The notes beneath the pieces were generated by a model. That model did not search any database and was not told the origin of the DNA. It saw only the letters and a program-made list of their open reading frames with translations. A stretch of 64,000 nt of DNA from an uncultured Flavobacteriaceae bacterium (GTDB lineage: Bacteria; Bacteroidota; Bacteroidia; NS11-12g; UBA955). A program made the position numbers and the translations under genes. Shown here one piece after another: positions 2,483 to 23,120 of the stretch (its first letter is position 1; each line of letters opens with the position of its first letter). Where the stretch lies: the NCBI GenBank assembly GCA_964626685.1, contig CAZVJY010000002.1, forward strand, positions 128,246 to 192,245. Reading direction: 5' to 3'.

Positions 2483-3289
2483 ATGAAAGTTGCTCAAAAA
2501 ACCATTGCCGTTACCGGCGCCGGGAATGGCATTGGCAGGGCACTCACCCTGCATTTACTGGATAAAGGCGCACGCGTCGCTTGTATAGACAAAGACGAAG
2601 AAGGCCTGCATAAAACCGAAATGGAGGCGGGATCACTGGCAGTAAGATTATCCTGCCATGCCGTGGATATTACCAAAACAGATGCGCTGCCGAGCCTGAT
2701 GAGTCAAATTCTGCACCAACATGGTTGCATCGACGGCCTTATCAACAACGCAGGTGTTATCCAAACCTTTACAACCGTCAAGAATACGGAAATGAAAGAA
2801 ATAGAAAGGGTAATGAATACTAACTTCTATGGCACCGTGCATATGATTAAGGAATTTCTGCCTCACCTGCTTCCCCGCAAGGAGGCGCATATAGTCAACG
2901 TATGCAGTATGGGGGCATTTGTGCCTGTTCCGGGCCAAGTATTTTACGGAGCTTCCAAAGCGGCAGTAAAACTGCTTTCTGAAGGTTTGCACTCTGAACT
3001 CAAAAACTCCGGTATAGGTGTGTCTGTCGCATTTCCCGGTGCGGTTGCAACAGAGATAACGCTGCATTCTGGGGTTACGCCGCCCAATATACCTCAGTCC
3101 AAATTGAAGAATTATGCGCGAAGCGAACCAAAGACCGTTGCTGAAGCCATAGTGAAGGGCATTGAAAAAAACGCATATCATGTATTTATCGGCAGCGATT
3201 CAAAATGGATGAATACACTGTACCGATTGAACCCGGAACTGGCCGCAAATATGATTCAGCGAAAAATGCGAGATCTTTTGAATCTGTAA
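2483..3289 (+). CDS. SDR family oxidoreductase
   Basis: TGAGNGIGRA Rossmann motif, NNAG, and a YGASKAA catalytic Tyr/Lys. Confidence 0.85.
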   Translation: MKVAQKTIAVTGAGNGIGRALTLHLLDKGARVACIDKDEEGLHKTEMEAGSLAVRLSCHAVDITKTDALPSLMSQILHQHGCIDGLINNAGVIQTFTTVKNTEMKEIERVMNTNFYGTVHMIKEFLPHLLPRKEAHIVNVCSMGAFVPVPGQVFYGASKAAVKLLSEGLHSELKNSGIGVSVAFPGAVATEITLHSGVTPPNIPQSKLKNYARSEPKTVAEAIVKGIEKNAYHVFIGSDSKWMNTLYRLNPELAANMIQRKMRDLLNL

Positions 3290-3295
3290 CTACAA

Positions 3296-4762
3296 CTACC
3301 TCGCTTTAATAAACACACGAACATCGTAGTTGGTATCTTTGGCAGGAAAATGGGCCAGTTCTCTATATTGCGTCATTATACGCATATCCGACAAAGTCAT
3401 TGGCGCGTCCCTCCGGGCGTGAAAGTTATCCCATAACACCACACAGCTGTCGGGCATCCAGTCTTGTCCTGGCCGCTTATCAATACTCCATATGTAAAAC
3501 GTTTTGGCAACTTCCGGCTTTGCCCAGGGATCCAGTCCCTGCTGAGCGTTTAGCCAGGGCATTTGATGCAATATCACCTTGTTGTTTAAACCCTGCTCAT
3601 GTATAAATTTTGTTGCCGCATCCACTTGAGGCACGCCAGGAAAAGCAGCAACCGAAGGAACCGACTGCCAGGGATAAGGGGTTTTACTCCCTGTATAGCT
3701 TCCTATTACCGATAAAACAGTGACTAAAGCAATAAATAGACGCCTGACCGCTTTAACCTCTACCGACAAAAGTTTATCCGATGCATACTGTGCAAGTAAC
3801 GCCGTTAGTGGTGCAGTAAGTAAAAAAACCCTGAGCAAACCATGAGAACCAAAAGATCCTTTATACCAAATCCATGAATGAGCAAGAAAAAAAGCAAGAA
3901 ACATGGGCGCTACCAACCAAAAACAAAACCGGCTTTTTTCTTCGGGTGTTTTTCTTTGAACCAGGTACACAACATGTGCGAGTAACCAAGCCAGAGCCAG
4001 GGTTGACAAGGCTGTTACGGCTATTCCCCATATCTGCCGCTGTGCATGTAAATAATGCAAAAAGTCGCCATGACCAATTTGAAAACGGTTATCGATTTCA
4101 GCCTTAAAATAAGGATTATGTGTAAGTATCCAAAACGGATCTCCTGAATAAACAGCCCCTGCCAAACTCAACAGAAGGAAACCCGAAAATAACCACATCA
4201 AAGGTTTCCATCGACTCCGGATTACAAAAAACAAGAGTACAACCACCCACAGAATTATTCCTTCAGAACGAAAAAAAGGAAATAGCGAAACGAGAATAGC
4301 TGCAGGCACATACCGCAGTGATGCAAGCCAGTAAAGGGCGAGACAAAGCACCAATGCATTCAAAGGCTCGGTAAGCGCACTAATAATATTACCAAAAACG
4401 ACGGGCTGAAACAAAAAAAACAAGGATGCCAGCCAGGGCATTTTAAAATTCAGACGCCTGGAGGTCAGAAACATTAGCCATCCACCGCCTGCCAGGCACA
4501 GGATATTCATCACATAAATACCTGCTATACCAAATTGCGCAAAAGGAACAGCAATAAGCGTAAAAAAAGGCTTTCCCCACTGATCCGCAAACAATTCAGT
4601 ATGTATGGGGGCATATCGCGCATACAGATAATGATTCCAGCTATCCTGTCCTCCTGCAGGCCATTCTGCCCTATACCAAAACAGCAACTGAAGCACCACT
4701 GCCAATGCAATAAACAAAAACGCTATCACCGCATTTTGTGAATTGTTACGCAGGACTTTCAT
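3296..4762 (-). CDS. polytopic membrane protein, GT-C-like glycosyltransferase (ArnT/PMT-like) candidate
   Basis: 488 aa with about 11 predicted TM helices. The first loop reads GGQDSWNHY, which is acidic and resembles GT-C loops. A C-terminal soluble domain follows. I did not recognise a specific family. Confidence 0.4.
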   Translation of the reverse strand: MKVLRNNSQNAVIAFLFIALAVVLQLLFWYRAEWPAGGQDSWNHYLYARYAPIHTELFADQWGKPFFTLIAVPFAQFGIAGIYVMNILCLAGGGWLMFLTSRRLNFKMPWLASLFFLFQPVVFGNIISALTEPLNALVLCLALYWLASLRYVPAAILVSLFPFFRSEGIILWVVVLLFFVIRSRWKPLMWLFSGFLLLSLAGAVYSGDPFWILTHNPYFKAEIDNRFQIGHGDFLHYLHAQRQIWGIAVTALSTLALAWLLAHVVYLVQRKTPEEKSRFCFWLVAPMFLAFFLAHSWIWYKGSFGSHGLLRVFLLTAPLTALLAQYASDKLLSVEVKAVRRLFIALVTVLSVIGSYTGSKTPYPWQSVPSVAAFPGVPQVDAATKFIHEQGLNNKVILHQMPWLNAQQGLDPWAKPEVAKTFYIWSIDKRPGQDWMPDSCVVLWDNFHARRDAPMTLSDMRIMTQYRELAHFPAKDTNYDVRVFIKAR

Positions 4763-4851: not shown

Positions 4852-5952
4852 TTAGTAGGTGCTGTGCACCAGCATCATATCCTGGATACGTTTTTCAGCC
4901 AGTTTAATGGCCGCCTGCTGGTTGTTTACGTTTTGGTTATCTGCCAGGGTGTAAATATCCAAAATGGTCTTGTAGATATTTTCTGCCTGTGCCATGGCCT
5001 GCTCACGCACATATCCTGTGTATTCGCTGTAAACGTTAATCAAACCGCCTGCGTTAATCACAAAGTCTGGCGCGTACACAATACCCTTGGCTTTCAGTAA
5101 ATCACCGTGAATCTTCTCATCTTCGAGCTGATTATTGGCGGCACCTGCCACCACCTGACACTTCAAACGCGGAATGGTATTATCGTTGAGGATTGCACCC
5201 AAAGCGCAGGGAGCAAAAACATCCACGTCCAGATCATACATATCGTCGCCACTCACAGGGATGGCGCCCATTTCTGAAGCTTGCTTCAAGGCAGCTTCAT
5301 TGATGTCAGCAACATAAAGCTTTGCGCCCTCTTTTTTCAAATGCTCCAGCAAATGCATACCTACTTTACCGATACCTTGTACCGCCACGCTTTTACCGCT
5401 GAGACTGTCGTTGCCCCAAGCTTTTTGGGCAGACGCCTTGATTCCCATATAGGTTCCGAAAGCTGTTACCGGTGAAGGATCACCGCCACCGCCCATAGAT
5501 TCAGGCAAACCCACCACGTGGTCTGTCTCCATATTCACGTATTCCATGTCGCGTGTGGTGGTTCCCACATCTTCTGCCGTAATGTATTTGCCGTTCAGGT
5601 TTTCTACAAAACGTCCAAACTTACGCATAAGTGCTTCACTTTTTGCCGTTTTGGGATCGCCGATAATTACTGCTTTAGCACCTCCCAGGTTAAGACCGGC
5701 AACCGAAGCTTTGTAAGTCATGCCGCGGCTAAGACGAAGTGCATCGCGAACCGCATCTTTTTCGTTGGCATAAGTCCACATGCGTGTACCTCCAAGACCC
5801 GGTCCCAGGACCGTGTTATGAATGGCAATGATGGCCTTAAGGCCTGTGGCATTATCCTGACAAAAAACGATTTGCTCGTGTTGGGTAGATTCAAGCCCTG
5901 CGAAAAGATCAAAGACCGTAGCGGGCATATTCATGGTTTGAATATCAGCCAT
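4852..5952 (-). CDS. leucine dehydrogenase (Glu/Leu/Phe/Val dehydrogenase family)
   Basis: 366 aa. QIVFCQDNATGLKAIIAIHNTVLGPGLGGTRMW and GLNLGGAKAVIIGDP closely track Bacillus leucine dehydrogenase. Confidence 0.8.
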   Translation of the reverse strand: MADIQTMNMPATVFDLFAGLESTQHEQIVFCQDNATGLKAIIAIHNTVLGPGLGGTRMWTYANEKDAVRDALRLSRGMTYKASVAGLNLGGAKAVIIGDPKTAKSEALMRKFGRFVENLNGKYITAEDVGTTTRDMEYVNMETDHVVGLPESMGGGGDPSPVTAFGTYMGIKASAQKAWGNDSLSGKSVAVQGIGKVGMHLLEHLKKEGAKLYVADINEAALKQASEMGAIPVSGDDMYDLDVDVFAPCALGAILNDNTIPRLKCQVVAGAANNQLEDEKIHGDLLKAKGIVYAPDFVINAGGLINVYSEYTGYVREQAMAQAENIYKTILDIYTLADNQNVNNQQAAIKLAEKRIQDMMLVHSTY

Positions 5953-6011
5953 TTTTTAATGAGTTTGCAAAGGTACGACTAAATGAATGAAAAAAATGAA
6001 GGTTTTGCCAC

Positions 6012-7028
6012 TTAAGGTGCGGATAGCACCGGAAGTTCGCGGGGCTTATACTTTGCGGCTGCATCGGAAATGGCTTTGATGTGTTCTGGAGTAGTGCCGC
6101 AGCATCCACCCACTACATTCACCCATCCTTCCTTGCACCAGCTTTCCAGCACCGCCGCCATTCCTTCGGGTGTATCGTCATATTCGCCAAATTCATTTGG
6201 CAAGCCCGCATTGGGATAGCAACTCACATTGATCCATGACACCCTGCTGAGCTCCTGAATGTAAGGACGCATCTGTTCGGCACCCAGGGCGCAATTAAAT
6301 CCTACAGAAATGATATCGCCGTGGGAAACAGAATTCCAGAAAGCTTCAGGCGTTTGCCCGCTTAATGTGCGTCCTGAATTGTCTGTAATGGTTCCGCTTA
6401 CCATAACCGGAATGTCAGAATTCAACTCCTCTTTCAATTCGTTGATAGCAAACAACGCCGCTTTGCAATTGAGGGTATCAAAAACCGTTTCTACCAGCAA
6501 TAAATCGCACCCTGCCTCCATAAGAGCCTGCACCTGTTCACGGTATGCCAACCTCAAATCATCGAAACTTACAGCTCTGTAACCGGGATTATTCACATCC
6601 GGACTGAGGCTCGCTGTGCGGTTGGTGGGACCTATGGAACCTGCGACAAATCTCGGCTTGTCCGGATTAATCAAAGTGTATTCATCTGCTGCTTTCCGGG
6701 CCAGCTTGGTTGCTTCCACGTTCAGTTCCCAAACCAGATTCTCCATATGATAATCAGCCATGGAAATGGAATTGGCACTAAATGTATTGGTTTCCAAAAT
6801 ATCGGCACCCGCCTCGAGAAACGCGCGGTGAATATCCAGAATAATTTGCGGCTGGGTAAGCACCAGCAGATCATTATTGCCTTTCAGTGAATGTGCATAA
6901 TCGCTGAAGCGGTCACCACGGTAATCCTCCTCAGTCAGTTTATGCTTTTGAATCATGGTACCCATGGCACCGTCAATAATCAGTATGCGCTCACTAAGAA
7001 GCTTATTTATGGTAGTTGAAACACTCAT
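6012..7028 (-). CDS. homocysteine S-methyltransferase domain protein (MmuM / MetH N-terminal domain-like)
   Basis: 338 aa. It begins [12 protein letters not shown] and ends with the [11 protein letters not shown] zinc-binding Cys pair. Confidence 0.8.
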
Positions 7029-7939
7029 TTTACAAAAGGTTTTAAGAAGTAAAACATGGCACGGAAAGTCTGGTTTAGATACTCCCGTGATTTTATGCGG
7101 TTATTTTTATCGAGCATCCGCTCCACATCCGATACACTGTACTTCAATCCGGCCTTGCTAAACAAATGAAGAGGCGAAAGTGTCCGTTTGTTTCTGGCGG
7201 AATCCGTATAATAAAACTGCACATATTCACCCGATAACTGCGCACCATGGCCTGCATTTTTCTGCCAAAAAACAATCTGACAGTCCTTATCATACAAATG
7301 CTGCAGTGGTGCCACATTGTAAATACTACTGTCCTTTCGGGTAAAAACAGCCCTCAGCGCCTGCTCAGCAAAGGCAACATCTTCAGAGGTATCTGAAGGA
7401 ATATAAAAAACACAGGCCTTGTGCTTATAGGCAAAATACAGGTTTCTTGTTTTGGATTTCACATAGGTAAAATCTTCTTTATTAACCGGTGCTTCTATGA
7501 GATCTGCCGGTACATTATCCCTGCAAAATGTATTGAGTTTTTCTTCAGATGTCACAGTAAGCCCTGCATACCATCCTTTATCATCCGAGAAGAGCACGAT
7601 ATCCGTCATCAGGTATATACCGGGCTGCCCTGCATCTTTCACGTTGTGCAACACCGGAAGTTTCAACAGGGTGTAATAAAAACTATCGTAATATATGGGA
7701 CGACTGTCAGCTGATTTTCTGGCAGCCTCATCCACGCTTCTGCTCTGAAAGTGATAGAACCAGTTTGCATCTTTGGGAACAATTAGCGGAAGGTTACTTC
7801 GGGAATGAACACCGTATGCCAGATAAACTGCTACCACTGCCGCTGTCACAAGCGTTACGACAATCAACGTAATAACCCTTCGGCGAAATCCTTTATCCTT
7901 TTGCATAACTACTGCAAAATAACATGCAGATGAACGCAT
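7025..7939 (-). CDS. hypothetical membrane-anchored protein
   Basis: 304 aa with a single N-terminal TM helix ([24 protein letters not shown]). The start may be the internal Met near 7906. Its stop overlaps the downstream homocysteine methyltransferase domain gene start by 4 nt (ATGA). No recognisable domain. Confidence 0.45.
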
Positions 7940-7940
7940 A

Positions 7941-7975
7941 AAAAAGAAAAGGCCACCCGAAGGCAGCCTTTTTTT
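7941..7975 (-). terminator. putative intrinsic (bidirectional) terminator downstream of the Cys-rich gene
   Basis: GGCCACCCGAAGGCAGCC is an imperfect hairpin with a CGAA loop. It is flanked by an A-run on the 5' side and a T7 run on the 3' side. Confidence 0.4.
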
Positions 7976-7992: not shown

Positions 7993-8367
7993 TTAGTTTT
8001 CAGATTTCTTGCAGCAAGGCTTTGCGCAGGATTTTTTCTCACCACCTGCAGCGGCCTCATGACCCTTGCAACCGGCAGCGGCTGTAGCTTTATCCTTGCA
8101 GCAAGATTTGGTTGCAGGAGCAGCAGCAGCTGTCTTTGCTTTGCAGCAAGATTTGGTTGCAGCTGTTCCACTGCATGATTTTGCAGCTCCGGCACACTGT
8201 TTCTTTTCGGTAGCCTGAAGAGGGGTGGCCTTTTCAGCGGCAGATGCATCCTGACTTACCTCAGCTGCGGTTACAGCTGTTACGGTTACTGACGGAGTTG
8301 ACGTTTGGGCTTTGGCAGCCATTTGAACTCCAAAGGCGCACACAGCAAGAATGATTATCTTTTTCAT
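7993..8367 (-). CDS. small secreted Cys/Lys/Ala-rich repeat protein (putative metal-binding)
   Basis: 124 aa. Signal peptide MKKIIILAVCAFGVQMAAKAQ. The mature part holds 11 Cys in about 65 residues, arranged in KSCCK / KPCCK motifs separated by poly-Ala. Confidence 0.55.
   Translation of the reverse strand: MKKIIILAVCAFGVQMAAKAQTSTPSVTVTAVTAAEVSQDASAAEKATPLQATEKKQCAGAAKSCSGTAATKSCCKAKTAAAAPATKSCCKDKATAAAGCKGHEAAAGGEKKSCAKPCCKKSEN
8096..8162. repeat. 45-nt in-frame tandem repeat inside the Cys-rich gene
   Basis: TTGCAGCAAGATTTGGTTGCAG occurs at 8096-8117 and again at 8141-8162. It encodes the repeated TKSCCK(A/D)K units. Confidence 0.7.
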
Positions 8368-8408
8368 ATTCTGATTGTTTAATTGTTTCTAATACAAATT
8401 TACTAAAG

Positions 8409-9062
8409 TCATGCCAAACTTGCAAGTACGGTTTCTCCGCCGATGGTTTTTTGACCCAAACTGACATTTACCTTACAGTCTGTCGGCAAAAAAAGATCTA
8501 TTCTGCTTCCAAATTTAATAAAACCATATTCCGCACCCTGATTCGCCATATCACCTTCACTGGCGTAGCAGACAATACGACGGGCCAGCGCACCTGCAAT
8601 CTGCCTGAACAAAATCTGTGTTTTGGGATTTTCTACCACCACGGTGGTGCGCTCATTTTCCGTGCTGCTTTTGGGATGCCAGGCAACCAGGTATTTTCCG
8701 GGATAATATCGCTGGTATACCACCTTACCTGAAATAGGATATCGATTCACATGCACATTCAAAGGAGACATAAAAATACTGATTTGCTTACGCTTCCCTT
8801 TAAAGAATTCAGGCTCCTCAACATCTTCAATCACAACCACTTTTCCGTCGGCCGGAGCGATAATGTTATTTTCGCTGACTGGAGTTGTGCGGGACGGGTT
8901 TCTGAAAAACTGCAGAATAAGCACATAGAAAACCAATGACAATATCAGCAAGGCGCGTGAAATCCAGCCATCTCCCAGCCACTCATAAAGTCCAAAATTC
9001 AGTCCTCCCAGAATCAGGGTAGAAAACAGAATGATCTTGAATCCTTCTCTGTGAAAAATCAT
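8409..9062 (-). CDS. psd: phosphatidylserine decarboxylase proenzyme
   Basis: 217 aa with an N-terminal membrane anchor. A C-terminal FGSRIDLFLP region resembles the Psd self-cleavage GS(T) site. The size matches short Bacteroidota Psd. Confidence 0.65.
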   Translation of the reverse strand: MIFHREGFKIILFSTLILGGLNFGLYEWLGDGWISRALLILSLVFYVLILQFFRNPSRTTPVSENNIIAPADGKVVVIEDVEEPEFFKGKRKQISIFMSPLNVHVNRYPISGKVVYQRYYPGKYLVAWHPKSSTENERTTVVVENPKTQILFRQIAGALARRIVCYASEGDMANQGAEYGFIKFGSRIDLFLPTDCKVNVSLGQKTIGGETVLASLA

Positions 9063-11446: not shown

Positions 11447-11785
11447 TTATTTGGCAGGATATCCCGCATCATACCAGGCCTTGAACTGGTTCATTTCAGC
11501 CTGCGACAACCCTGAAGGCGGCATGGATTTATTGATATATACTTCCTGATACAGGTGACTGATATGCTTTTTTAGGGAGGCCTCATAATTGTCCGGATTA
11601 TAAGCCCATGCGTTGCGGTTACTCCCCTTGCTTCCATGACAGGAACCACAATTTCTGTCGAACCAGGGCCGCATTGTAGCGTGCTCAAAACCGGTCCCCG
11701 ATGACTTTTGACAACCATTAATACTTAATGTGAAAGCAATGGCAATCGGTAAAGCAAACAAGATTCTTTTCATAAACACCACCAA
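11447..11785 (-). CDS. small c-type cytochrome (lipoprotein-like signal)
   Basis: 112 aa. The signal is followed by Cys (INGCQ). One CGSCH haem-binding CXXCH motif. Confidence 0.6.
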   Translation of the reverse strand: MVVFMKRILFALPIAIAFTLSINGCQKSSGTGFEHATMRPWFDRNCGSCHGSKGSNRNAWAYNPDNYEASLKKHISHLYQEVYINKSMPPSGLSQAEMNQFKAWYDAGYPAK

Positions 11786-11821
11786 GATACAGTTTTCTCA
11801 GCAGATTTTCAAACTATTCAC

Positions 11822-12709
11822 TCACCGAACGATAAAACTTCGCATACTGATACCACCATATTCCACACTCTCGTAGAATGTTTGAGCCATTTCAGTCTTT
11901 CCGGCAAGGCCGAGGCTATACAGCATGGGAATGTAATGATCGGGTGAGGGAACGGAAAGTAAACCCATTTTTCCTGCACTTTCATAATTGATTAGTTTAT
12001 TGTAATCCCCGTTTTGCAGGGCATTTCCCACCCAAGTATCGAATTCAACAGCCCAGTCAAATGCAGTTTTATCGCCGCGGCCCAGCATGGGAATACTGGC
12101 GCTCAGGTTGTGAACAATGTTACCGCTGCCAATGATAAGCACGCCCCTGTCCCGAAGCCTGCTGAGCATTCCTGACAGCTCAAAATGATGATGCATGGGC
12201 TTTCCCCAGTCAATGCTAAGTTGAAAAGCCGGAATATCAGCCTTGGGAAACAGGTGCTTTAAAACAGCCCAGGCTCCGTGATCCAGGCCCCAGTCTGCCG
12301 TGGGTTTTGCCTCAGCCAACAAACCCGAAGTTTCATTCGCAAAATCCGGTGAACCTGAAACAGGATACTGAACTTTGTATAAATCTTCGGGGAATCCGCC
12401 AAAATCATAGATAATTTCAGGCTCTTGAGCAACCTGCACATAAGTTCCGCGTGTGAGCCAGTGGGCCGATACAACCAGCACGGCTTTGGGTCTGCTTTTC
12501 TCCAGAATTTCTACTCCCATTGCTTGCAGTGCTGTTGTGTAGGGATTGGTTTCAATTGCGTTCATAGGACTGCCATGCCCGATGAACAAGACCGGCTGAC
12601 GATTGGTAGACGGGGTTTCGTCTATCCACTTGCCGAGTATATTTAAATCTGTTACCATAGCACCGAATGGAAGCGCACACAGCGAGGAGATAAATGCACG
12701 CCTTTTCAT
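11822..12709 (-). CDS. class III extradiol ring-cleavage dioxygenase (LigB/DODA-YgiD family) with Tat-type signal
   Basis: 295 aa. The N-terminus is MKRRAFISSLCALPFG. HGSPMNAIE and SAHW motifs are typical of 4,5-DOPA dioxygenase-like enzymes. Confidence 0.7.
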   Translation of the reverse strand: MKRRAFISSLCALPFGAMVTDLNILGKWIDETPSTNRQPVLFIGHGSPMNAIETNPYTTALQAMGVEILEKSRPKAVLVVSAHWLTRGTYVQVAQEPEIIYDFGGFPEDLYKVQYPVSGSPDFANETSGLLAEAKPTADWGLDHGAWAVLKHLFPKADIPAFQLSIDWGKPMHHHFELSGMLSRLRDRGVLIIGSGNIVHNLSASIPMLGRGDKTAFDWAVEFDTWVGNALQNGDYNKLINYESAGKMGLLSVPSPDHYIPMLYSLGLAGKTEMAQTFYESVEYGGISMRSFIVR

Positions 12710-18341: not shown

Positions 18342-18980
18342 ATGGCAACTAAAATCAGATTGCAAAGACATGGCCGGAAGAAACGTGCTTTCTTCCACAT
18401 TGTGGTGGCGGATTCGCGTGCTCCTAGGGATGGCCGTTTTATCGATAAAATCGGTACTTACAACCCTATCACCAATCCTGCAACCATCGACATCAACTTG
18501 GAAAAGGCCGTACAATGGATGGCCAATGGCGCTCAACCCTCAGACACGGCCCGTGCCATCCTGAGTTACAAAGGCGTTCTCTACAAACACCACCTGCAGG
18601 TGGGTGTGCGCAAAGGTGCTATCACCCAGGAACAGGCTGATGCCAAATTTGCGGAATGGATGACTTCGAAAGAAGCCAAAATCGCAGACAAGCGCAGCAA
18701 CCTCGAAAAGGCTAGCAACAGCCGTAAATCGGATGCTATGAAAGCCGAAGCACAGAAGCGTGAAGCCATTGCAGCCCGCGTTCTGGCCAAGCAAAGTGCC
18801 GCCAGCGAAGAAGTAACTGAGGAAACTGAAAGTACTGAAACTGAAGCCAGCGCAGAAGTAACTGAAAACGTTGCTGCTGAGGAAACCACTGCAACAGAAG
18901 ATGCAGCTGAAGAAGCGCCTGCTGCTGAAGAGCCTGCCGCTGAAGAATCAGCACCTGCTGAAGGTGAAAACGCCGAGTAA
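18342..18980 (+). CDS. rpsP: 30S ribosomal protein S16 with long acidic C-terminal extension
   Basis: [42 protein letters not shown] is canonical S16. About 90 extra C-terminal residues are rich in Glu, Ala and Thr. Confidence 0.9.
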
Positions 18981-20981: not shown

Positions 20982-21697
20982 AACAATTTTCCAAAGAATT
21001 TGAATCCTGGATACTGTACCGCGACGATGACTTTATCGTTGTAAACAAACCGCCATTTGTACCATCTCTGCACGAACGCGGCAAGTTTACCCATATTTCT
21101 CTGCTCGAAATGGCCCGGGAGTTTCATCCCGATGCTACCCTTTGTCACCGACTGGACCGCGAAACCAGCGGTGCTGTTGTAATTGCCCTCCATGCTGAAG
21201 CATACCGTCATATGAGCATTCAGTTTGAAGACCGCAAAGTGGAAAAAATTTACCACGCGGTGGTGGAAGGTCAGATACAATTTGACGACCACCTAGTGGA
21301 TTTGCCCATACAGACCGAAATACCCGGCAGGGTAAGAATTGACCGCTCAGGCAAGCCCTCGGCCACGTTCTTCAAAACCCTGGAAATCTTCCGTCATTTC
21401 ACCCTCATGGAGTGCCAGCCGGTTACCGGAAGAATGCACCAGATTCGCGTCCATCTTGAATCACAAAACACCCATATCCTCGCAGATGAACTTTATGGTG
21501 GCAAAACCTTTTTGCTATCGCAACTAAAACGCAAGCACAAAGGCGAAGACAGTCCGCTGATAAAACGTTTTGCCCTCCATGCCGCCGTGATTGCCTTTCG
21601 CAAAATGGATAACGAAGTGCTGGGCATAGAAACGCCCTACCCAAAAGACATGGAAGTGTTGTTGAAAATCCTTCGCAAATACGATGCGGTTTCATGA
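20978..21697 (+). CDS. RluA family pseudouridine synthase
   Basis: The catalytic motif HRLDRETSGAVVIA is present. Its start overlaps the upstream stop by 4 nt (ATGA). Confidence 0.8.
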   Translation: MKQFSKEFESWILYRDDDFIVVNKPPFVPSLHERGKFTHISLLEMAREFHPDATLCHRLDRETSGAVVIALHAEAYRHMSIQFEDRKVEKIYHAVVEGQIQFDDHLVDLPIQTEIPGRVRIDRSGKPSATFFKTLEIFRHFTLMECQPVTGRMHQIRVHLESQNTHILADELYGGKTFLLSQLKRKHKGEDSPLIKRFALHAAVIAFRKMDNEVLGIETPYPKDMEVLLKILRKYDAVS

Positions 21698-22641
21698 GGT
21701 TGCTGGTAAAAATATGGCCCTTTTTTATTGGAGTTGTACTTTGGATGGCCTTTTCCACACCCCCGGATTTCAATGAATTGACTGAAGCACAGATGGGAAG
21801 AAAACTGTTTTTTGACAAACGGTTTTCACTCAATAACAGCATCAGCTGTGCCGATTGTCACATTCCTAACTTTGCTTTCTCAGACACAACCGCATTATCC
21901 AAAGGTTTTAACAGGGAAAGAACCACCCGCAATGCGCCACCGCTGACCAACCTAACCGGAAGACCTTACTTTTTCTGGGATGGACGTTCACCCAGCCTCG
22001 AAGACCAGGTCCTTCATCCCATTCAGCATCCGGTAGAAATGGGATTAACCCTTAAAGAACTGAACAAAAGACTAAGGGCAGATAAATTCTATGTAAATTG
22101 GTTTAAAAAACATTACGGAAAACTCCCTGACGCCTACCTGGCCGCCCGAGCCATTGCCGCATTTGAGCGCACCCTCGAGACCGGCAATGCGCCTATTGAC
22201 CGATTTATGGACGGAGACTCCGGCGCAATCAGCATTTCAGCGATGCGCGGCCGTGATGTTTTCACCGAAAAAGGAAAATGTTTTGAATGCCATTTTACAC
22301 CGGATTTTACGGCCGATGAATTCAAGAACATTGGATTGTTCAATGCCAAAAACCTAAATGACAGCGGCAGATACATAGTAACCAAAAACCCGGCGGATCT
22401 GGGTAAATTCAGGGTTCCGGGCTTGCGAAATGTAACCCTTACTGCGCCTTACATGCACAATGGAATGTTCAAAAGCCTGGAAGAAGTTATCGATTACTAC
22501 AACGATCCTGCGTCGGTGGTTCCGGATGGCATCAACCGCGACACGTTGCTGATTGGCAAATTAAACCTCACTCCTCAGGAGAAAGCAGACTTGCTGGCCT
22601 TTTTGCAAACCCTGACTTCTGCTTCCGCTTCGCGCAAATAA
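21694..22641 (+). CDS. di-haem cytochrome c peroxidase (CCP/MauG family)
   Basis: Two CXXCH motifs, CADCH and CFECH. N-terminal signal anchor. Its start overlaps the upstream stop by ATGA. Confidence 0.85.
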   Translation: MRLLVKIWPFFIGVVLWMAFSTPPDFNELTEAQMGRKLFFDKRFSLNNSISCADCHIPNFAFSDTTALSKGFNRERTTRNAPPLTNLTGRPYFFWDGRSPSLEDQVLHPIQHPVEMGLTLKELNKRLRADKFYVNWFKKHYGKLPDAYLAARAIAAFERTLETGNAPIDRFMDGDSGAISISAMRGRDVFTEKGKCFECHFTPDFTADEFKNIGLFNAKNLNDSGRYIVTKNPADLGKFRVPGLRNVTLTAPYMHNGMFKSLEEVIDYYNDPASVVPDGINRDTLLIGKLNLTPQEKADLLAFLQTLTSASASRK

Positions 22642-22649
22642 TCCCGATC

Positions 22650-23120
22650 ATGAACGCTGCTAAGCCATCATCCAAAGAACTTGGAGAAATTTCAGAGAAA
22701 CTTCGAAGGCTAAAAAAGAAACCGCCAGGCAATCTTGACCGGCAATTTGAGGAAGCACACGACGCGGTTTTTTCTCAAACAGACTGTCTGACTTGCGCCA
22801 ACTGCTGCAAAACCGCTTCACCCATGTTGTTCGAAAAAGATATTGAACGACTGGCAAAGCATTTAAAACTGAAACCCGGTGCTTTTATTGAACAATATTT
22901 GTTCCTCGATACCGACGGAATTCATGCTTTTAGGCAAACGCCTTGTTCGTTTTTAGGCAATGATAACTACTGCAGCGTATATGAACACAGACCCAAAGCC
23001 TGCAGGGAATATCCGCATACCAACATGCGAAAAATGCACACATTGCTGACCCTGGCTGAAAAAAACCTGCAAATTTGTCCGGCGGTTGCCCAAATTGTGC
23101 AACGCATTGAAAATGCCTAA
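22650..23120 (+). CDS. YkgJ family cysteine-cluster protein (UPF0153)
   Basis: The CLTCANCCKT CxxCxxCC motif, plus later Cys residues. Confidence 0.7.
   Translation: MNAAKPSSKELGEISEKLRRLKKKPPGNLDRQFEEAHDAVFSQTDCLTCANCCKTASPMLFEKDIERLAKHLKLKPGAFIEQYLFLDTDGIHAFRQTPCSFLGNDNYCSVYEHRPKACREYPHTNMRKMHTLLTLAEKNLQICPAVAQIVQRIENA

Follow-up and report, generated by a model that had tools for sequence, protein, structure and literature searches.

What is the role of a small exported protein that is crowded with cysteine and lysine and belongs to no described family? The question is raised by a gene in a 64,000-nucleotide (nt) stretch of DNA from an uncultured Flavobacteriaceae bacterium (contig CAZVJY010000002.1), which was analysed as a whole and is referred to as the window. 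An initial annotation, made by reading the sequence, had described at 7993–8367 a secreted Cys/Lys/Ala-rich mini-protein, possibly a metal binder. The open reading frame (ORF) at this position is complete and encodes 124 amino acids (aa) from ATG to stop, as seen in the ORF listing. Its extent was thus given correctly; its strand is to be corrected to minus, with the stop codon at 7993–7995. We tentatively read the product, from its sequence features, as a periplasmic metallothionein-like thiolate metal sponge or buffer.

The product is divided into three parts, which are a signal peptide of 20 aa (MKKIIILAVCAFGVQMAAKA), a spacer of 33 aa (QTSTPSVTVTAVTAAEVSQDASAAEKATPLQAT), and a domain of 71 aa (EKKQCAGAAKSCSGTAATKSCCKAKTAAAAPATKSCCKDKATAAAGCKGHEAAAGGEKKSCAKPCCKKSEN). 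The spacer (aa 21–53, 8209–8307, minus strand) is rich in Thr, Ala, Ser, and Val and contains four Pro. It is the fastest-evolving part of the protein, with a dN of 0.24–0.85 and many indels. The Cys/Lys-rich domain (aa 54–124, 7996–8208, minus strand) uses only Ala, Lys, Cys, Gly, Ser, Thr, Glu, Pro, Gln, Asp, His, and Asn, and is devoid of Leu, Ile, Val, Met, Phe, Trp, and Tyr. It has 10 Cys (14%), 15 Lys, and a net charge of +10. Its one His is the only His of the 104-aa mature protein, which contains no Met. The Cys form seven clusters (C, C, CC, CC, C, C, CC) with the spacing C-x6-C-x8-CC-x13-CC-x9-C-x13-C-x3-CC, and hence include three CC pairs and one CxxxCC. The KSC, KSCC, and KPCC motifs described initially are all present, with Ala/Thr-rich linkers between them. 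So are the CC pairs, but the spacing that had been called CxC-like is absent. The mature polypeptide had also been credited with 11 Cys; it has 10, the eleventh (C10) being part of the signal peptide and missing in distant orthologues.

The 10 Cys among 104 mature residues are far more than the 1.2% background of the window's confident ORFs would yield (binomial P = 6e-7). Lys occurs within two positions on either side of all 10 Cys, as compared with a mean of 6.2 in shuffled sequences (p ~0.01), and all 10 domain Cys are invariant in a seven-sequence alignment. The window contains no paralogue and no other Cys-dense real ORF. The Ser codons directly preceding Cys are TCN in 56 of 57 cases across the family, while in the other genes of the window AGC and AGT together make up over half of all Ser codons. 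Such a bias is consistent with a single ancestral unit from which all K-S-C units derive.

We inspected whether the ORF behaves as a gene. Pairwise comparison with relatives gave a ratio of nonsynonymous to synonymous substitution rates (dN/dS) of 0.13–0.18 for the whole gene, where dS was estimable, and of 0.04–0.21 for the Cys domain, which indicates that the domain is under strong purifying selection. A putative promoter of the Bacteroidetes sigma-A type is located at 8395–8425 (minus strand). It consists of a −33 TTG (8425–8423), which falls within the 3′ end of psd, and the −7 box TAAATTTG (8402–8395), with a spacer of 20 nt in between; the consensus and position of the −7 box recognized by Bacteroidetes sigma-A have been described (PMC9723704). 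The predicted leader is about 23 nt long, A-rich, and without a Shine-Dalgarno sequence. In the window, as in all 12 related genome loci, the motif TAnnTTTG is found 33–39 nt upstream of the ATG, and it is preceded by TTG in 12 of these 13 loci, the remaining one (L013) having ATTGG there. Downstream of the gene is an intrinsic terminator (7937–7972, minus strand) with an 11-bp stem, in which a GC-rich core (7972–7947) is followed by a T-run. The hairpin occurs in all 13 loci with compensatory changes in the stem, so the gene appears to have its own terminator, as the initial annotation had claimed, along with its own sigma-A promoter. Because a conserved promoter lies upstream and a conserved terminator downstream, the gene is, by these signals, a monocistronic unit, and its promoter is near consensus. 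Promoter, terminator, and reading frame are kept in more than 20 loci. Together with the substitution rates in the Cys domain, this conservation argues that the ORF is translated, and indicates that it is a real, autonomous gene conserved in uncultured freshwater Bacteroidota.

The first 20 aa (8308–8367, minus strand) form a classical signal peptide, in agreement with the initial description of a clear signal peptide and a secreted product. The sequence has no twin-arginine and ends in AKA before Gln21, and the mature part begins with QTS. An A-x-A site followed by Gln at +1 is kept in every orthologue examined. Cleavage by signal peptidase I (SPI) after Sec export is the reading that these features support. 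In Bacteroidetes, Gln exposed at +1 by SPI is cyclized to pyroglutamate, which is known as the Q-rule (PMC5837995). The window protein fits the Sec/SPI substrates that follow this rule, its A-x-A site exposing Gln21 at +1, and its mature N-terminus is inferred to be pyroglutamate.

An alternative explanation is a spurious or decaying low-complexity ORF, or else a lipoprotein anchored via C10. The low-complexity composition, the Cys in the signal peptide, and a low AlphaFold2 confidence could be taken in this sense. The first form of this explanation is ruled out by the strong purifying selection and by the conservation of promoter, terminator, and frame in more than 20 loci. As for the second, C10 is missing in the orthologues L017, L018, P0009–P0011, L033, and L035, and because it is lost in these distant orthologues it is not a lipobox Cys, while A-x-A-Q is invariant. 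The explanation as a whole is therefore extremely improbable.

The protein belongs to no described family, as had been proposed initially. An hmmscan against Pfam-A returned no family at E ≤ 10, the profiles of metallothionein, Csp, HMA, OmcA, thionin, and defensin included. A profile search against the PDB returned no match at E ≤ 10, the NCBIfam search gave only noise, and Rfam gave nothing in the whole window; hence no strong homology to a known family was found in Pfam, the PDB, or NCBIfam. No such family is described in the literature retrieved on bacterial or periplasmic metallothioneins, on KSCCK, on Flavobacteria and metallothionein, or on new prokaryotic metallothionein families. An exhaustive search of 1.84e9 representatives with a profile hidden Markov model of the Cys domain found only three relatives. 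A word-index search of 5.8e9 clusters found six, all of them hypothetical proteins without a Pfam domain.

Structure prediction gave a similar picture. The AlphaFold2 model built with the family alignment is a low-confidence one without secondary structure, having a mean predicted local distance difference test score (pLDDT) of 39 and a predicted template modelling score of 0.14. A charge-hydropathy plot places the domain on the disordered side, and the mature protein is predicted to be disordered on its own. Lacking hydrophobic residues, the domain can have no core around which to fold, which leaves it either to remain disordered or to be organized by metal–thiolate clusters or by disulfides.

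The distribution of the gene was followed through genome and metagenome contigs. The genome contigs contributed 12 loci from metagenome-assembled genomes titled Flavobacteriales, Bacteroidota, or Bacteroidia, apart from one titled Sphingomonadales that is taken to be mis-binned, and the metagenome contigs contributed nine further loci. As far as can be judged by isolate and sample labels, the sources are lakes and rivers (Rimov, Zurich, Tanganyika, and Mendota). A second, permissive search gave weak matches to P0009 (E = 0.1), P0010, and P0011, which are positional orthologues in the same slot. Two more proteins in this slot with the same architecture, L033 (134 aa, 7 Cys) and L035 (141 aa, 10 Cys), were found in the surroundings of those homologues of the neighbouring 304-aa gene that are most distant. 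Wherever the contig reaches, the gene order is HisKA – GDH – psd – Cys-rich gene – 304-aa orphan – homocysteine S-methyltransferase – Leu/Val dehydrogenase. This agrees with the location given initially, between psd (8409–9062) and a hypothetical gene (7025–7939). No locus examined lacks an occupant of the slot, even among those in which identity falls to about 70% for psd and to about 37–47% for the 304-aa gene. The gene belongs to the core genome of freshwater Bacteroidota and is restricted to this lineage.

The orthologues show which parts of the protein are held constant. Kept throughout are the SPI signal with Gln at +1, the spacer, the motif [EK]KK-x-CAG with a second Cys 3–6 residues further on, K[SA]CCKAK, and the terminal CCKK. 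Variations occur in the lengths of the linkers between Cys clusters and in the number of Cys, which totals 7, 8, 9, 10, or 11 in the mature part; several of these totals are odd, and 10 is found in most orthologues. Distant orthologues have also gained His beside Cys, namely DCHK, GKHE, and KKHNCADHK in P0010 and KKHC and VHKC in L033.

We favour the metal-sponge reading because of the Cys/Lys/Ser/Ala/Gly composition, the absence of aromatics, the Lys beside Cys, the CC pairs, the variable linkers and Cys totals, and the extra His in distant orthologues. The metallothionein likeness proposed initially is compatible with what was found, in that hydrophobic core residues are lacking, the chain is predicted to be disordered, Lys stands beside every Cys, and the Cys counts are variable and often odd. 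In MerT, in MerA at its C-terminus, and in ArsD, vicinal CC pairs serve as ligands for Hg(II), As(III), and Cu(I). The Cys/His/Lys-rich tail of Helicobacter pylori HspA binds Ni. In the proposed mechanism, the protein would be exported to the periplasm or cell envelope via Sec/SPI and cut after AKA, and the Gln at the mature N-terminus would be cyclized to pyroglutamate. The Cys thiolates, those of the three vicinal CC pairs among them, would ligate soft metals, which may be Cu(I), Zn(II), Cd(II), or Hg(II), perhaps together with the single His. The chain would collapse around metal–thiolate clusters in the fashion of metallothioneins, and the neighbouring Lys would neutralize the charge of the clusters. 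The product would then be a periplasmic metal sponge or buffer that resembles SilE/PcoE in its working, with Cys replacing Met/His. The gene occupies a fixed core-genome slot in which neither a regulator nor an efflux gene is found, which makes housekeeping buffering a likelier role than inducible resistance. It is also possible, and is suggested with greater reserve, that this protein founds a new and non-homologous family of metallothionein-like exported proteins and is an intrinsically disordered Cys-thiolate periplasmic metal buffer encoded by a core gene in abundant uncultured freshwater Bacteroidota.

Several observations weigh against the metal-sponge reading. The domain contains neither CxC nor CxxC motifs, and no metallothionein, Csp, or HMA profile in Pfam matched it at E ≤ 10. 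No metal transporter, sensor, or resistance gene lies near, the neighbours being psd, GDH, homocysteine S-methyltransferase, Leu/Val dehydrogenase, and a PhoR-like kinase. Classical metallothioneins contain about 30% Cys, and the 14% of the domain is lower. Known periplasmic metal binders mostly avoid Cys, as the compartment is oxidizing, and the thiols might become oxidized in vivo. Moreover, the first and the last domain Cys have been lost jointly (C58Y and C119S) in one Tanganyika lineage, as seen in the independent assemblies L028 and L015/L029. Such a paired loss could mean that the two residues work together, and it could be accounted for by a disulfide pair or by a shared metal site. 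On the Tanganyika contigs L015/L029 and L028, the gene lies at 6001–6384, 5001–5384, and 2861–3244. A separate substitution, C118R alone, is found in L012 and L025, and the near-identical L026 retains the Cys.

The joint loss of two Cys also speaks for a different reading, in which the product is a disulfide-cross-linked polycationic envelope protein. Its Lys would bind lipopolysaccharide, phospholipid heads, peptidoglycan, or capsule, and its intra- or intermolecular disulfides would stiffen or glue the envelope, with a function like that of Chlamydia OmcA or of Cys-rich protamines. Export to an oxidizing compartment is consistent with this reading, and so are the commonest Cys count, which is even (10 in most orthologues), and the net charge of +10 on a domain without hydrophobic residues. 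The setting is consistent with it as well, namely a constitutive-looking core gene that has as neighbours a gene of phospholipid synthesis and a membrane-anchored orphan, whose model bears a weak resemblance to TP0453, a membrane-associated lipoprotein. The likeness to chlamydial OmcA extends to a similar size, to export, to richness in Cys and Lys, and to association with the envelope. OmcA, however, is a lipoprotein in a disulfide-cross-linked outer-membrane complex, and the window protein has no conserved lipobox, often odd Cys counts (7, 9, and 11) in its orthologues, and no match to the OmcA family or to a disulfide-rich fold in the Pfam and PDB profile searches. Loop lengths are variable, and AlphaFold2 shows no fold. 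Because Cys counts range from 7 to 11, often being odd, and linker lengths vary, a fixed all-disulfide fold is disfavoured. We consider the envelope-protein reading unlikely.

The metal-sponge reading was further examined against known metal-binding systems. Like the metallothioneins (BmtA/SmtA and MymT), the protein has a small Cys-rich domain with no aromatics, Lys beside Cys, CC pairs, and predicted disorder, and its 14% Cys falls within the range of bacterial metallothioneins. Unlike them, it has no sequence relationship to the family (no Pfam match at E ≤ 10), lacks CxC and CxxC, has long Ala/Thr linkers between its Cys clusters, and is exported by a signal peptide, whereas classical metallothioneins are cytosolic. 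The tail of H. pylori HspA is likewise of low complexity, with SCC/ACC vicinal pairs amid Lys, and in the distant orthologue P0010 several His have been added as well. In HspA the tail is a His-dominated cytoplasmic appendage of GroES, whereas the window protein is free-standing and exported and has at most 1–4 His. Csp1 of methanotrophs is an exported bacterial protein as well, with more than 10 Cys thiolates, and in both proteins such thiolates could be Cu(I) ligands outside the cytoplasm. The Tat-exported Csp1 forms a stable Cys-lined four-helix bundle on a hydrophobic scaffold. In contrast, the window protein has a Sec signal, no hydrophobic residues in its domain, no predicted helices, and no match to the Csp family in Pfam. 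A disordered periplasmic metal sponge is known in SilE, which is based on Met and His (PMC5008109). The window protein resembles SilE/PcoE in being small, exported, and predicted to be disordered alone, and it could plausibly fold on binding soft metals in the periplasm. SilE/PcoE carry Met/His motifs and belong to sil/pco efflux operons on mobile elements, whereas the window protein has no Met in its mature part and one His and would use Cys. Its gene is a chromosomal core gene without efflux neighbours, and the Pfam search indicated no homology.

The same Lys and Cys can be read in terms of redox chemistry. The protein would then be a sacrificial periplasmic thiol buffer, whose low-pKa thiolates scavenge H2O2, singlet oxygen, HOCl, or the electrophilic quinones of sunlit humic lake water, and which is either re-reduced by an envelope thiol-disulfide oxidoreductase or turned over. 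Lys beside every Cys would lower the thiol pKa, the chain is predicted to be disordered and accessible, and all carriers are planktonic freshwater bacteria. Metallothioneins, moreover, double as antioxidants (PMC11273490). However, no reductase partner is adjacent, the exact motifs KSCCKAK and CCKK are conserved beyond what a thiol reservoir needs, and such a buffer would be stoichiometrically expensive in streamlined genomes. This role is accordingly regarded as quite improbable.

A secreted, cationic, Cys-rich protein may also call to mind an antimicrobial peptide or bacteriocin of the thionin or defensin kind, the more so as KSCCK is found at the N-terminus of plant thionins. This pentapeptide is all that is shared, a coincidence of five residues, and thionins are built on a conserved disulfide scaffold of 6–8 Cys that includes aromatic or hydrophobic residues. 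The window domain matches neither the thionin nor the defensin profile in Pfam, and with no aromatic or hydrophobic residues it has no amphipathic face. No immunity, processing, or transporter genes were found nearby, and the gene has a fixed core-genome slot in every relative. An antimicrobial function is very improbable. Two further candidates were rejected: a precursor of a ribosomally synthesized and post-translationally modified peptide, as no modifying enzymes are encoded nearby, and haem or Fe-S binding, as there is no CxxCH.

The domain-coding region contains the exact 22-nt repeat with a spacing of 45 nt that the initial annotation had pointed out. Copy 1 (8141–8162, minus strand) encodes (A)ATKSCC(K), aa 69–76, and copy 2 (8096–8117, minus strand) encodes (P)ATKSCC(K), aa 84–91. 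The 22-nt core sits in a 43-nt direct repeat of 79% identity. Tandem Repeats Finder reported no array, so that these are two units and not an expanding tract. Identity over at least 22 nt arose in 0.05% of synonymous-codon resamplings that preserved the protein and followed the codon usage of the window, and in 0.4% when the gene's own codons were used. The DNA identity is thus rarer than identical peptides alone explain, and a small conversion tract behind it is plausible. The repeat had also been thought to reflect recent expansion. When its copy number was compared across relatives, both KSCCK units were present in the window gene and in all 12 close homologues on genome contigs, so the repeat is not a recent expansion. 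The spacing of the units ranges from 33 to 60 nt across the homologues, only by indels in the Ala/Thr linker, and L007, which is the closest relative, has mismatches between its two units at 3 of 22 positions. The number of CC-K units does vary in distant orthologues, with about two in P0009 and three CCKSK in P0010.

The Cys-rich gene is followed immediately, wherever the locus reaches far enough, by a gene for a 304-aa membrane-anchored orphan (7025–7939, minus strand). It is lineage-restricted, with 18 clusters in 5.8e9 proteins, and has only a sub-threshold Pfam match to DUF4836 and no NCBIfam or PDB sequence match. Its AlphaFold2 model (pLDDT 79) shows an N-terminal helix of about 40 residues followed by an alpha/beta domain. 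The only fold match is a weak one, to the lipoprotein TP0453 of Treponema pallidum (template modelling score 0.33–0.39). The orphan evolves fast, being 38% identical where GDH is 85% identical. It is a constant companion of the Cys-rich protein and may be functionally linked to it, but synteny extends over the entire block.

Otherwise the annotated window encodes housekeeping functions, with genes for TerC, SDR, a UvrD-like helicase, S16/RimM/TrmD, YidC, AtpD, LptD, SecDF, and others. A di-haem cytochrome c peroxidase (CCP_MauG) and then a 156-aa protein with a CxxCxxCC domain (PF03692, putative Zn/Fe chelating) are encoded at 21694–23120 on the plus strand, the latter being the only other Cys-motif protein identified among the annotated ORFs. 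The gene for ribosomal protein S16 (18342–18980, plus strand), which is followed by rimM and trmD, encodes a product whose C-terminus carries an acidic tail of low complexity, about 120 aa long and rich in Ala, Glu, and Thr. At 3296–4762 on the minus strand, a 488-aa multi-pass membrane protein has no Pfam match and a weak match to NCBIfam AZOBR_p60025 (cell-surface glycopolymer formation). In L019 the positional counterpart matches PIG-U weakly, and the position of the gene is conserved in the syntenic block. A 112-aa lipoprotein-like cytochrome c with CGSCH is encoded beside an exported LigB-family extradiol dioxygenase-like protein (11447–12709, minus strand); this pair is kept in the close relatives L001–L006 and absent from the more distant L019–L021.

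To our knowledge, few families of bacterial metallothioneins are known, all of them cytosolic, and the periplasmic metal sponges described so far rely on Met/His and not on Cys. Should the Cys be engaged in disulfide cross-links, these bacteria would possess in this protein an envelope component that has gone unrecognized. If it is an exported, disordered Cys binder, it would represent a new solution to metal handling in the envelope, fixed in the core genome of widespread lake bacteria, and thiolate-based metal buffering would operate outside the cytoplasm in Bacteroidota. The family could then shape the speciation of Cu, Zn, Cd, and Hg at the cell surface of lake bacterioplankton, and could bear on how cell-surface thiols control the uptake of Cu, Cd, and Hg in freshwater plankton.

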